DNA from: Thermodesulforhabdus norvegica
GTDB taxonomy: Bacteria > Desulfobacterota > Syntrophobacteria > Syntrophobacterales > Thermodesulforhabdaceae
Assembly: GCF_900114975.1 (NCBI RefSeq)
Contig: NZ_FOUU01000004.1
Span: forward strand, 60,811 to 92,810
Length of the DNA stretch: 32,000 nt
Direction of reading: 5' to 3'
In this document: one piece after another, positions 20,541-24,370 of the stretch
Layout: each line of letters starts with the position of its first letter
Position numbering within the stretch: position 1 is the stretch's first letter
The notes under the pieces: generated by a model
Told to the model about the DNA's origin: nothing
Databases searched by the model: none
Seen by the model: only the letters and a program-made list of their open reading frames with translations
Made by a program: the position numbers and the translations under genes

Positions 20541-20613
20541 ATGCCGGTATTGAATATCACTCCGGAGGAATACATGACCATGAAGGCTGTGGTAATTGAT
20601 GACGACAAGGAGG
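20541..20613 (+). pseudogene. 5' fragment of a 50-codon ORF split by the IS insertion
   Basis: AGGAGG RBS, then MPVLNITPEEYMTMKAVVIDDDKE. The frame then runs into IS sequence (VTTVDF*). Confidence 0.6.
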
Positions 20614-20661
20614 TTACAACAGTTGACTTTTAGCATATAATAGTGCATATTAGTATCAGAA

Positions 20662-21241
20662 ATGAGTCAGGTGTTATTAAGTGCACAAAATATAAAGAGA
20701 CTATATGGAATACATCGCAATACTCTTTTGCTCCGGGAAAAGCGGGGACTATTACATCCGGTCAGAACACCTGGTGGGAGGCGTAGATAAGCGATTGCCG
20801 GGAATGTTTGAGGAAGAAGTTGAAAACAAGACATTAAAAGTAGTGCTTTATGCCAGGGTTTCTACACGAAAGCAGAAGGAATATCTTGAAAGTCAAATAG
20901 AAAGGTTGAAGAAGTATGCTGATGAAAAAGAATGGAACTACGAAGTAATATCGGAGATAGCGAGTGGAGTTAATGAAAAGCGGCGTGGACTCAAGAAACT
21001 TCTTAACCGGGTCAAAAAAGGTACTGTGGAAAAAGTGGTTATTGAGTATCCGGACCGGTTAGCTCGTTTCGGTTTCGAGTATCTTAAAACCTTTTTCGAA
21101 AGCCATGGAGTGGAGCTGATAACAATTAATGGTAAGGAACATGAAGAAGACCGTATGAAGGAGTTAGCAGAGGATTTAATAGCAATAGTAAATTCATTTG
21201 CTGCACGGGTTTATGGTTCTCGTGGGGAAAAAAAGAAGTGA
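20662..21241 (+). pseudogene. tnpA: IS607-type serine recombinase TnpA, interrupted by a +1 frameshift between the HTH and catalytic domains
   Basis: Frame A (20662-20790) encodes MSQVLLSAQNIKRLYGIHRNTLLLREKRGLLHPVRTPGGRRR*, a MerR-like HTH. Frame B (track ORF 20705-21241) carries VVLYARVSTRKQ...DRLARFGFEYL...FAARVYGSRG, the catalytic domain. Confidence 0.8.
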
Positions 21242-22836
21242 TTACAGTTCAGTGTTTATTAGAATTTGAAACAAAGAAAGATAAGCAAAAGGCTCTAAAC
21301 CTTATGCGGAATTTTTCTGCATGTATAAGATATGCCTACAACAGGCTACTTGAAGGGTGGAATAGGAAAGATTTAAAAAAACATTTGCAAAGCGTGTTTC
21401 CTCTTAATTCAAGGTATTGCGATGACGCAATACTGAAGGCAAGGGAGACATTAAATGCCTGCATAGAGAGAAAACAAAATCCGAAAAAACTTATATTTGG
21501 GACCAGGCATCTTTTTGAGAAGCTGAAGAAAAGACATATTACCGGAAAAAGAAGAAAAGAGCTCATAAAAGAGTGGAAAGAAAAAAGGCAGGGGACGGTT
21601 TACTCAAGAGGAGATAAAACAAAGAAAGGTAATCTGAATATCAGATTTGTGTTTTTAGAAAAAACTCTCTATCTCAGGATTAACACCGGTAAAGGCAGGT
21701 ATGTATATACAAAAGTTCATCGAAATGTACAAAAAGGAAGGGCACAAAAGGATAAATGGGTTAATTTTGTTGAAAGTCTGGCCATAGGGGAATCCACAAA
21801 AAAATATATTCCCTATTCAGTGGAGCTCAAAAAAAGAAGCGGTAAAATTTATGCCTTTGTCAGCTTTAATGAAGAGCTTCCCGAAGTCTCAATAACGAAG
21901 GAAAGCGGGATTATTGGTATAGACGTAAATGCCAGTCCATTTCACATAGCCTATGCAGAAGTAAAAAGAGACGGTAACCTCAGGGCCTATGGAAAAATAA
22001 ACCTGAGTAACTTTATAGGCAAAAGCAAAGAAACAAGAGAACTCCTTTCGTGGCAGGTTGCTCATCAAATAGTAAATCTTGCCAGGGAGAGAAAAAGAGC
22101 AATAGCTATAGAGAACCTCAAAAAGCTGCCTAAAGGTAAAAAAGGAGATGGAAGGAGAAAGCTGAGAAGAAGACTTCAGCAGTTTATCTACAAGGGGTTG
22201 CTTCAAAAAATAGAAATTCTGGCAAGGAGAGAAGGAATAGAAGTTGTTAAGGTCAATCCAGCTTTTACCTCGGTAATAGGCCAGCTTAAGTACAGTCCTC
22301 AGTATGGCATAGATAAAGACGTTGCCGGGGCTTTTGTTATAGGCAGAAGAGGAATGGGGTTTAAAGAAGAAATTCCTGAGAATTACCTGAAGCTTCTAAG
22401 CAAAAAAGAAATTCTTGAATATTCTCTGTATATGCTGAAAGAAAAGAAAAGGGAATTAAAAGAAAGGCTGGAAAAAGAAAACAACAACTGGAAAAAGAAC
22501 GCCATAAAAACTGAACTTAGGACTATTAACATAGAGATAAAAATGGCAAACAAACAGCTTAAAGATATACAAAGTCCTGAGAGTAATCCAGCTACCCGAC
22601 AGCAGGCCTCTGGAGGGAACAAGCCTGTGAGGGGTCTATTAGATAAGAGACAAAAAAGCTGGAAAGTTCTCAGGGCAGTCCTCACCTTCCCTATTCTTGG
22701 AAAGTCCTTCGTAAGGGACTTTTCTCCCCTGAAGACAGTTTTAGTTTCAGGGGACTGGAAGAGGGTGGTGAGAAGATCAGTTCCTGTACCTGGTGCAGGG
22801 ACGACTGCACAATACGCTAATGTGCAGTTCTGGTAA
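21238..22836 (+). CDS. tnpB: TnpB-like RuvC nuclease-fold protein lacking the zinc-finger module, with a long C-terminal extension
   Basis: 532-aa ORF. It has a TnpB-like N-terminus, RuvC-I IIGIDVN (D229), RuvC-II AIAIENL (E292), NPAFTS and DKDVAGAFVIGRRG (D361). No Cys occurs after residue 75. Confidence 0.85.
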   Translation: MITVQCLLEFETKKDKQKALNLMRNFSACIRYAYNRLLEGWNRKDLKKHLQSVFPLNSRYCDDAILKARETLNACIERKQNPKKLIFGTRHLFEKLKKRHITGKRRKELIKEWKEKRQGTVYSRGDKTKKGNLNIRFVFLEKTLYLRINTGKGRYVYTKVHRNVQKGRAQKDKWVNFVESLAIGESTKKYIPYSVELKKRSGKIYAFVSFNEELPEVSITKESGIIGIDVNASPFHIAYAEVKRDGNLRAYGKINLSNFIGKSKETRELLSWQVAHQIVNLARERKRAIAIENLKKLPKGKKGDGRRKLRRRLQQFIYKGLLQKIEILARREGIEVVKVNPAFTSVIGQLKYSPQYGIDKDVAGAFVIGRRGMGFKEEIPENYLKLLSKKEILEYSLYMLKEKKRELKERLEKENNNWKKNAIKTELRTINIEIKMANKQLKDIQSPESNPATRQQASGGNKPVRGLLDKRQKSWKVLRAVLTFPILGKSFVRDFSPLKTVLVSGDWKRVVRRSVPVPGAGTTAQYANVQFW

Positions 22837-22841
22837 CCAGG
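22575..22841 (+). ncRNA. candidate omega/right-end RNA scaffold overlapping the tnpB 3' end
   Basis: The region shifts to visibly higher GC than the rest of the IS. Consecutive perfect hairpins lie at 22699-22724 and 22725-22754. Alternative stems are gtgcag/ctgcac/tgtgcag (22793-22827). The region ends at the IS right boundary. Confidence 0.35.
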
Positions 22842-22921
22842 AAGCCCTTAGACTCATAAAAAACTTCCTGAAACGGCTGGAACTGGAAGAACGGAAAGCT
22901 CTTAAATCCCATCTGGACTGA
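22841..22921 (+). pseudogene. 3' fragment of the ORF split by the IS insertion
   Basis: EALRLIKNFLKRLELEERKALKSHLD* is in frame with the 5' fragment once 20614-22841 is removed (gag-gaa junction). Confidence 0.6.
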
Positions 22922-23005
22922 TCTTTTTCGGTTTGCCACACAGCCGATGGGAGTCAGTTTACAGTTGATAATTCCGGGACTTTTGGGCGTGAAAGGATTT
23001 TCGAG

Positions 23006-24370
23006 ATGGCCGGAAGACGCTTTGAAGCCGTACAGTATGTTAGGAAAATATTCGACGGATGCACCGATTGCGATGTTTGCAGATTCCTCATGGAGGATAG
23101 CTGTTTGCTTTTCCCCAGACTTTACGAACTCTACGACAGGTACCTGCAAACGGGCGATTTTCCTGAAGATAAAGAGTTTCTGAACCTCGTTGATTGCTGT
23201 ACGCTTTGTGGGCTCTGTCCTTGCCCGGATGTCAGGACAAATATCCTCTGGGCCAAAGCCGAGAAGGCTCGTGAAGTAGGTTTGAATCCTGCATCTCGAC
23301 TTCTTTCCGATCTTCAGGTCCTGCAAAAACTGGGGAGTGCCGGACGCCTCTTGCTGTCCCTACTTCTGAAAGCACCCTTGTGTAACGGTGCCCTTGAGAT
23401 GCTGGGTATCTGTTCGGAAAGACGAATTCCTTCTCCGGCCGTGGAGGATTTCTTCTCCTGGGCCAGGAAAAAAGGGCTAAAAGAACATTCGGAAACCGGG
23501 CCCAGAGTAGCCTATTTCGTGGGATGCACGGCGGCTTACATTTTCCCCGAAGTTGCCAGAGCCGCCGTGAAAGTGCTCGAAAGTCTCGGAGTGTTTGTAC
23601 ACATACCGGACCAGAACTGTTGTGGCATGCCTCTGGCCGTTGAGGGCGACAAAAAAAGAATGATGGATCGAGTTAATCGGAATATACAGGCGCTGTTGAC
23701 GCTTGCCGATAAGGGTTACGAAATAGTCTGTTCTTGTCCAACCTGTGGATACTTTTTCAAGGCCATCCTTAAAGAAAATGCCTGTTTCAGCGTCGATTGC
23801 GACGACGATGATGCGGTAGTGAGGAGATCTTTTTCGGAGGTACTGTCACTCCCTCTGCGGGGTGCTTCGTCTACCGGCAACAGACGGGCCTACGCTCCTT
23901 ATTACTTCTCCGATGATTTTTTTCAGACTCTGGACGTCGAAGCCCGTTTGAGGATTTCTGCTCTTGTAAAGGACGTGGGAGAATATCTGGTTCGGTTTAA
24001 GGACGCCATTCTTTCTGGATCTCTTAAGCCCCCGGCAGGCAGGTGGGTTTACTTTGCACCCTGCCATCAGAGAGAACAGGGGATGGGTAAGCCCTACTAC
24101 GAAATCCTATCGAAAATTCCGGGATTCTCTGTGGAGCCTGTGGGGAGTACCACCGATTGTTGCGGTATGGGCGGTAGCCTGGGATTTAAAAAGGATTTCA
24201 ACGGCCTGTCCTTAAAGCTGGGACTGCCGCTAATGGAAAAAATAAAGAAACTCAATCCCGCCGGTATAATTACGGATTGCCTCAGTTGCCGCCTCCAGTT
24301 CCAAAATAGCCTTCCGTACCCTGTGCTTCATCCTCTTGAACTATTGGCAGAAGCGATGATTATTTTCTAA
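23006..24370 (+). CDS. (Fe-S)-binding CCG-domain oxidoreductase (GlcF/GlpC/HdrD-like)
   Basis: Ferredoxin-type CTDCDVC...C and CTLCGLCPCP motifs, plus two CCG-type regions (FVGCTAAY...NCCGMP and FAPCHQRE...DCCGMGG). Confidence 0.8.
   Translation: MAGRRFEAVQYVRKIFDGCTDCDVCRFLMEDSCLLFPRLYELYDRYLQTGDFPEDKEFLNLVDCCTLCGLCPCPDVRTNILWAKAEKAREVGLNPASRLLSDLQVLQKLGSAGRLLLSLLLKAPLCNGALEMLGICSERRIPSPAVEDFFSWARKKGLKEHSETGPRVAYFVGCTAAYIFPEVARAAVKVLESLGVFVHIPDQNCCGMPLAVEGDKKRMMDRVNRNIQALLTLADKGYEIVCSCPTCGYFFKAILKENACFSVDCDDDDAVVRRSFSEVLSLPLRGASSTGNRRAYAPYYFSDDFFQTLDVEARLRISALVKDVGEYLVRFKDAILSGSLKPPAGRWVYFAPCHQREQGMGKPYYEILSKIPGFSVEPVGSTTDCCGMGGSLGFKKDFNGLSLKLGLPLMEKIKKLNPAGIITDCLSCRLQFQNSLPYPVLHPLELLAEAMIIF

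Follow-up and report, generated by a model that had tools for sequence, protein, structure and literature searches.

A 2,228-bp insertion sequence of the IS607 family lies in the stretch of DNA analysed here (the window), which comprises 32,000 nucleotides of the Thermodesulforhabdus norvegica contig NZ_FOUU01000004.1 (positions 60,811 to 92,810) and is numbered below from its first letter. The subject of this report is the tnpB gene of that element. We consider it probable that this gene specifies a TnpB protein that lacks the zinc finger, carries its ωRNA within its own mRNA, and would carry out guided cutting of the empty insertion site. The features on which the argument turns are the following.

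20614-22841, + strand: IS607-family insertion sequence, 2,228 bp, delimited by the start of similarity among relatives, a drop in conservation and a restored host gene
21238-22836, + strand: tnpB, 532 amino acids, GTG start, without a zinc finger; triad codons D229, E292 and D361
22267-22317, + strand: TS motif and short helix/loop at the place of the zinc finger (residues 344-360), from the AlphaFold2 model and a spacer survey
22360-22572, + strand: K/E/L-rich helical hairpin (residues 375-445; helices 389-413 and 417-445)
22574-22841, + strand: ωRNA scaffold of ~268 nucleotides, supported by covariation; it occupies the final ~88 codons of tnpB and runs to the right end of the element
22842-22861, + strand: predicted guide AAGCCCTTAGACTCATAAAA, in the host DNA adjoining the right end

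The GTG at 21238 is the correct start of tnpB, because homologs begin with MIT(L/V)QC at the equal position in an alignment of 30 sequences. The start overlaps the stop of tnpA by 4 nucleotides, and the public gene call P0001 (510 amino acids, Logan assembly) begins 22 residues too late. The catalytic codons (D229, gac, 21922-21924; E292, gag, 22111-22113; D361, gac, 22318-22320) and the motifs GIDVN (residues 227-231), AIENL (290-294) and NPAFTS (340-345) lie where an earlier note, made from the sequence alone, had placed them; the RuvC-III segment DKDVAGAFVIGRRG occupies residues 359-372. The linker VIGQLKYSPQYGIDK was correctly read in that note but set 6 nucleotides off, since residues 346-360 correspond to 22273-22317 and not to 22267-22311. 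Cysteines occur only at residues 6, 29, 61 and 75, so that the protein is indeed cysteine-free after residue 75. The 171 residues that follow D361 include a K/E/L-rich stretch (residues 375-445, with 15 K, 12 E and 10 L among 71) and then a tail (446-532) of a composition unlike the rest of the protein. The G+C content of the underlying DNA (0.38 in the core, 0.30 in the coiled coil, 0.50 in the tail), together with these residue counts, bears out the succession of a K/E-rich segment and a different tail that had been described.

It had also been considered that the long open reading frame (ORF) could be a fusion, or an assembly or sequencing artefact joining tnpB to downstream sequence. This is refuted, because 30 relatives with 52-73% identity span 98-100% of its length. 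More than 100 independent homologs of 520-560 residues, from genomes and metagenomes, share one end-to-end architecture, and the probability left to such an artefact is close to nil.

The AlphaFold2 model of the protein, built on the 30-sequence alignment, has a mean predicted local distance difference test (pLDDT) score of 77; residues 1-445 are modelled with confidence, and residues 446-532 fall below 50. Foldseek searches of the PDB with this model gave AsCas12f as the best match (8j3r, 7wju and 8j12; E 4e-9 to 3e-8), followed by Cas12k, Cas12g, Cas12m and ISFba1 TnpB (8iaz), with all matches between E 4e-9 and 2e-4. Viral TnpB-like proteins also match. The NCBIfam models TIGR01765 (N-terminal domain; 65.0 bits, cut-off 47.25) and TIGR01766 (TnpB-related; 58.2 bits, cut-off 32) both score above threshold, and the N-terminal part of relatives has a precomputed match to Pfam PF27229 (SSO2105_N). 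The TnpB layout proposed in the earlier note is thus upheld, and the model predicts that the protein is of the TnpB/Cas12 fold, with WED and REC regions followed by a split RuvC domain. The Pfam model Cas12f1-like_TNB (for the target nucleic-acid-binding, or TNB, module) stays under threshold (17.3, cut-off 26.3). A PDB search with the single sequence returned only a chance coiled-coil match, and PHROGs gave only generic "transposase" matches.

D229, E292 and D361 are invariant in the 30-sequence alignment, as expected of the RuvC D-E-D triad that they are predicted from sequence to be, and beyond C6 the alignment has no conserved cysteine. Invariant columns occur in the tail as well (R465, W475, R493-D494, S496-P497-L498 and P516). 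When the family profile is aligned to Cas12f, AIAIENL and NPAYTS fall on TIQIENL and NPQYTS, a stretch which we take to hold the RuvC-II glutamate and the TSQ motif, and the alignment ends where the zinc finger of Cas12f starts. We considered whether the protein could be a nuclease-dead, exapted TnpB similar to TldR; this was ruled out, as the triad is intact, the insertion sites are many and the neighbouring genes vary.

The 3' end of tnpB behaves as RNA as well as coding sequence. Across 69 loci, nucleotide identity is 80-99% from about 22570 to 22841, and the wobble expected at third codon positions is missing. RNAalifold folded 28 sequences into a consensus of 66 pairs, 42 of which show compensatory changes. 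For pair counts we used these pairs with a terminal hairpin added (72 pairs), and compared them with slid partners and with 500 shuffles. Cells were paired in 96% of cases over the 72 pairs, against 40-53% with slid partners; compensatory pairs numbered 45 of 72, against 15-21; and the covariation score was 0.48, against about 0.1. For each of the three measures, none of the 500 shuffles reached as high a value. Folded as a single sequence, the RNA of the window has a minimum free energy of -119 kcal/mol (z = -5.8). The RNA is assigned to the + strand because of its invariant G-U pairs. A search of Rfam found no family for this RNA. We conclude that the tail DNA (22574-22841) is an ωRNA scaffold that ends at the right end of the transposon; the length and use of the guide that would follow it are predicted by analogy with characterized systems.

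The reading frame is kept open across this RNA. The ORF frame contains a mean of 1.2 stops over the RNA region, compared with 6.9 and 4.2 in the two alternative frames, and in 72% of loci the stop codon lies within 15 nucleotides of the right end, often inside T(A/G)ACCAGG (negative values in a few loci probably reflect mis-called right ends). Third-codon identity rises from 0.34-0.51 over residues 1-440 to 0.52-0.59 over residues 441-520 among 14 sequences with less than 75% protein identity, and in the same sequences amino acid identity over 441-520 is no higher than in the core. Because the frame is kept open while it overlaps a structured RNA, the tail is dual-coded: it is translated, yet its sequence is largely dictated by the RNA.

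These observations bear on the view, essentially that of the earlier note, that the whole C-terminal extension of ~150 residues is a new folded domain that replaces the zinc finger. One part of it does look like a protein module. The helical hairpin 389-445 is modelled with confidence (mean pLDDT of 68-91 per 10-residue block over residues 371-440), its DNA has third-codon positions as in ordinary coding DNA, and Pfam DUF2192 matches residues 358-436 (22309-22545; 31.1 bits, 2.3e-7, cut-off 21). The open frame of the tail could be read in the same sense, as could a W-x-V-(L/V) motif that persists in relatives at 30-40% identity. However, residues 446-532 model as disordered, and their DNA is conserved at third-codon positions and forms helices with 45 compensatory pairs. 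Some relatives, moreover, carry a self-complementary insertion of ~60-70 nucleotides that is read as peptide, which suggests that the RNA drives the sequence. We therefore regard a single new domain as distinctly unlikely: the hairpin 375-445 stands, while the last ~90 codons correspond to a covarying RNA, and in the model the hairpin 389-445 is the sole confidently folded addition.

The insertion just mentioned is found at L005 (4318-4673), L008 (3818-4173), L039 and L016 (columns 301-370 of alignment A2). Its arms, CCGCC...GGCGG and CTGGGG...CCCCAG, are self-complementary by eye, and it is translated in these relatives as a peptide insertion of ~21 residues containing PPAGALSYSEEAEYKYPSQNC. 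This peptide insertion appears to be an insertion of an RNA hairpin.

The Pfam entry DUF2192 is described there as an "uncharacterised protein conserved in archaea", and its match corresponds to the RuvC-III helix and the helical hairpin. In UniRef, P0088, which is a full-length relative, bears the name of a DUF2192 protein. Rather than an independent family, DUF2192 looks to be the C-terminal portion of the present TnpB family. Together, DUF2192, SSO2105_N, TIGR01765 and TIGR01766 already model the two ends and the centre of the family, although they assign no function and do not mention the RNA overlap.

The absence of the zinc finger, also claimed in the earlier note, extends well beyond the window. 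In the AlphaFold2 model, a helix (344-356) runs directly into the RuvC-III helix (360-373) at the place of the zinc finger. The spacer from TS to RuvC-III is 18 residues long, without CxxC, in nearly all of 80 cluster representatives (each at least 330 residues). Within the same 80 representatives, the catalytic residues read D-E-H in 60 and D-E-D in 12. Histidine at RuvC-III occurs, for instance, in P0134, P0139, P0142, P0145, P0174, P0177, P0203, P0210, P0215 and others; P0182 has glutamine there, and P0142 and P0146 have aspartate in place of the RuvC-II glutamate. One relative, P0223, is 1,208 residues long.

Zinc fingers have been lost in some large branches of TnpB, and a major clade named RIIIr-4 has been described that lacks the C4 zinc finger and has histidine in place of the RuvC-III aspartate (Altae-Tran et al. 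2023, PNAS, PMC10691335). Nety et al. 2023 (PMC10278001) tested a RIIIr-4 protein from Nocardiopsis dassonvillei (ortholog 39, 529 amino acids), and its RNA as printed there translates to DPAYTSRWG...SRHDAASIAVGRRAQG, the same layout as NPAFTSVIG...DKDVAGAFVIGRRGMG in the window. Like RIIIr-4, the window protein lacks the C4 zinc finger and shows the motif order (N/D)PA(Y/F)TS-x-x-G, ~18 residues, x-(K/R)-(H/D)-x-A-A-x-x-V-I-(G/A)-R-R; lengths are similar (about 430-560 residues), both are associated with serine recombinases, and in both a long ωRNA starts within the coding region. In contrast, RIIIr-4 is defined by histidine at RuvC-III, where the window subclade has aspartate, D361 being invariant in this subfamily. 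In a neighbour-joining tree without support values, drawn from a limited sample with two typical TnpB proteins as outgroups, 11 of the 12 Asp-type clusters fall in one branch among the His types. Judged by these sequence comparisons, the window TnpB belongs to the zinc-finger-less assemblage, in an Asp-retaining minority subclade.

Compared with typical TnpB proteins (ISDra2, ISFba1) and Cas12f, the window protein shares the predicted WED-REC-RuvC fold and a D-E-D triad with a DxD-type RuvC-III motif, and its ωRNA likewise lies over the 3' end of the gene and finishes at the right end, the flanking DNA being the predicted source of the guide (PMC10278001). It differs in lacking the CxxC...CxxC module, in the extra helical hairpin after RuvC-III, in an ORF that spans the whole scaffold up to 5 nucleotides before the transposon end, and in scoring under the cut-off of the model NF040570.

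The borders of the element are fixed by comparison with relatives and by the host gene that it interrupts.

20541-20613, + strand: 5' part of a 50-residue host gene split by the insertion
20610-20613, + strand: GAGG target-site motif, candidate target-adjacent motif (TAM), directly 5' of the left end
20614-20661, + strand: left end, which holds promoter-like hexamers and, at 20618-20625, the conserved AACAGTTG motif
22842-22921, + strand: 3' part of the split host gene

On the left, similarity among relatives starts at ...GAGG|(T/C)xxxxAACAGTTG, and the AACAGTTG motif recurs in over 50 loci. Among 52 unique junctions, the four flanking positions show G in 50, A in 44, G in 47 and G in 52, and the sequence further upstream is random. 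Conservation drops sharply on the right after ...T(A/G)ACCAGG at 22841, and the 20 nucleotides that follow ACCAGG differ in 65 of 66 loci. When the two flanks are joined, they form a 50-residue ORF (MPVLN...KALKSHLD) that aligns without gaps, at 72-82% identity, to 50-residue proteins of Desulfacinum hydrothermale and Thermodesulforhabdaceae, in which this gene of unknown function is intact. These matches point to a thermophilic sulfate reducer as the host. Since the joined flanks restore the host gene, the element is 20614-22841, GAGG belongs to the target and no part of the target has been duplicated. The alternative that GAGG constitutes the first four bases of the element was ruled out, as the host gene needs those bases. 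Both junctions carry GG (20612-20613 and 22840-22841), as in IS607 elements; a crossover core longer than GG was ruled out, given that the variants GTGG (left flank) and CCTGG (right end) do not co-vary within loci. The G+C content of the element is 0.37-0.44, against about 0.50 in its flanks.

Several further observations concern the ends. Two sigma-70-like hexamer pairs lie in the left end (GTTACA-17-TATAAT and TTGACT-17-CATATT, 20613-20641 and 20623-20651), and the conserved AACAGTTGAC motif could also serve as a -35 box; promoter-like hexamers are no more numerous in this region than expected by chance. In one subfamily (L034, L035, L053, L061, L062, L076, L078, L087 and others), a second conserved block (…TTTTCGATAGTTTTAAGATGGAGATAGTTGTAGTCAATAGGTGTAGGCAGAAT) is found ~84 nucleotides before tnpB, with a AACAGTTG-type left end further upstream. 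This block looks like a 3' remnant of tnpA or an internal regulatory region. A minus-strand ORF of 169 residues (22817-23326) that covers the right end and shares sequence with both the split host gene and the beginning of a + strand gene (23006-24370) is probably spurious.

The other gene of the element, tnpA, is present in two pieces.

20662-20790, + strand: 5' fragment of tnpA with a MerR-like helix-turn-helix (HTH), in its own frame and with a premature stop; it translates to MSQVLLSAQNIKRLYGIHRNTLLLREKRGLLHPVRTPGGRRR*
20791-21241, + strand: 3' part of tnpA, coding for the catalytic domain of the serine recombinase in a frame other than that of the HTH; contained in the ORF 20705-21241

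The 3' part matches NF033518 (transpos_IS607) at 1e-54, over profile positions 46-187 only, which agrees with the IS607 association made in the earlier note, and it matches Pfam Resolvase at 8e-28. The HTH fragment matches the N-termini of intact TnpA relatives. Because a 17-nucleotide deletion puts the HTH and resolvase parts in different frames, tnpA is a pseudogene, and with tnpA broken the element of the window is non-autonomous. The 17 nucleotides are present in nine of nine relatives, and a homopolymer sequencing error was ruled out on the strength of this gap. As in IS607, tnpA precedes tnpB with an overlap of 4 nucleotides, the TnpA of intact relatives consists of a MerR-like HTH and a resolvase domain, GG stands at both junctions, and there are neither terminal inverted repeats nor a target duplication. 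The differences are the inactivated tnpA of the window and the fact that most family members are solo tnpB elements, tnpA occurring in about 11 of 87 related loci.

The broken tnpA raises the question of whether this genome holds no more than a decaying relic of the locus, without function, and the occurrence of a single copy (no second one was found within the 32-kb window) would fit such a history. Yet tnpB departs from the family at none of its invariant columns, the ωRNA folds like those of relatives, both ends of the element are intact and most relatives lack tnpA anyway. A relic is in our view very unlikely.

The family to which this gene belongs is large. A word-indexed search found at least 901 homologs, of which the best 120 are 467-588 residues long and 51-100% identical to the query, nearly all covering 96-100% of it (the 100% match is the window's own gene call P0001). 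Homologs occur in thermophiles, including Aquificota; the genera comprise Desulfurobacterium, Persephonella, Sulfurihydrogenibium, Hydrogenobacter, Hydrogenobaculum, Thermocrinis, Ammonifex, Thermosulfurimonas, Caldisericum and Thermofilum. At NCBI they go under the name "IS200/IS605 family accessory protein TnpB-related protein". When 50%-identity representatives were searched exhaustively, 98 clusters matched at E<=1e-30, a number that grew to 943 at E<=1e-10. A scan of genome contigs with the single protein gave only 4 loci, and an alignment-based scan confirmed relatives on at least 550 metagenome stretches. Multiple copies are known from Ammonifex degensii (six proteins) and from metagenome loci that share contigs (L030 with L058, L060 with L063), and more than 50 different insertion sites are represented across the family. 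Four IMG/VR contigs classed as viral (L088-L091) carry relatives at 38-49% identity, one of which (L088) is the contig of metagenome locus L047.

The earlier suggestion that the protein is rare or novel is not supported by these numbers, nor by the existence of curated hidden Markov models and the publication of RIIIr-4. The window TnpB is intact and unexceptional within a large and catalogued lineage that is biochemically unexplored, and our literature search found no paper with biochemistry for the Asp-retaining subclade, nor any characterization of SSO2105, of DUF2192 or of TnpB from the host genera.

From these elements a mechanism can be proposed, in which the processing of the RNA, the use of a guide, the role of the TAM and the cutting of DNA are inferred by analogy. 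In canonical TnpB systems, cutting favours retention or homing of the element. The mRNA of tnpB would itself be the ωRNA precursor, its last ~268 nucleotides (22574-22841) folding into a scaffold of several helices that terminates precisely at the right end, and transcription would run on into host DNA, adding the guide AAGCCCTTAGAC.... The complex of protein and ωRNA could then recognise GAGG followed by a match to the guide, which is to say the empty donor site, and the RuvC centre formed by D229, E292 and D361 would cut it, favouring retention or homing. Within the protein, the single helix 344-356 would stand in for the zinc finger, and the hairpin 375-445 would have been added after RuvC-III. 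The basic tail 446-532 would be kept in frame and shaped mainly by the overlapping RNA. Processing of its own mRNA into ωRNA is established for TnpB and was likewise observed for the RIIIr-4 ortholog (PMC10278001).

Several facts weigh against this proposal. No member of this family is known to cleave DNA, and nothing in the window protein is known to take over the usual role of the zinc-finger (TNB) module. The model NF040570 (guided_TnpB) gives 66.8 bits, under its cut-off of 100, and GAGG could be a preference of TnpA alone. Ortholog 39, the sole zinc-finger-less member that has been tested, processed a 466-nucleotide ωRNA and yielded no TAM in a screen for cleavage of double-stranded DNA (PMC10278001).

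This last result invites another explanation, in which the protein binds and processes the ωRNA and is no nuclease of double-stranded DNA, loss of the zinc finger having changed its substrate to single-stranded DNA or RNA, or left it with DNA binding only. Alternative substrates were proposed by the authors of the assay for such orthologs (PMC10278001), and histidine at RuvC-III in 60 of the 80 representatives of the wider clade also speaks for it. However, the negative assay concerned another protein, one of the His type, and was run under mesophilic conditions of temperature. The subclade of the window has an invariant aspartate in DKD(V/I)A, close to the typical DRDxN, and its target-site-specific, multi-copy mobility fits the canonical retention role. 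On balance we hold a change of substrate to be unlikely for this subclade, and prefer guided cutting of the empty site.

A stronger version of the preferred reading, that the Asp-retaining zinc-finger-less subclade is a fully active, thermostable, RNA-guided nuclease of double-stranded DNA, can be offered only tentatively. If it were true, the zinc-finger/TNB module would be dispensable for TnpB catalysis, given a hairpin after RuvC and a basic tail that overlaps the RNA. The Asp group among His types would then either preserve the state that is ancestral for the RIIIr-4 assemblage or have arisen by reversion from histidine to aspartate.

Nothing here is conceptually new, as the zinc-finger-less clade is already part of a published census. 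What goes beyond the earlier note is the placement of the protein in the Asp-retaining minority and the recognition that its tail is an overlap with its own guide-RNA scaffold. With regard to applications, the protein is a predicted RNA-guided nuclease that is derived from a thermophile and poor in cysteine, with a 268-nucleotide scaffold, a defined guide start and GAGG as a candidate TAM; at 532 residues it is not compact. For annotation, the odd tail of the TnpB-related proteins of 520-560 residues can be read as the footprint of an overlapping ωRNA, and the same probably holds for much of Pfam DUF2192. For the biology of TnpB, the split between aspartate and histidine within the zinc-finger-less clade provides a natural pair in which the effects on substrate of the RuvC-III change and of zinc-finger loss may be compared.

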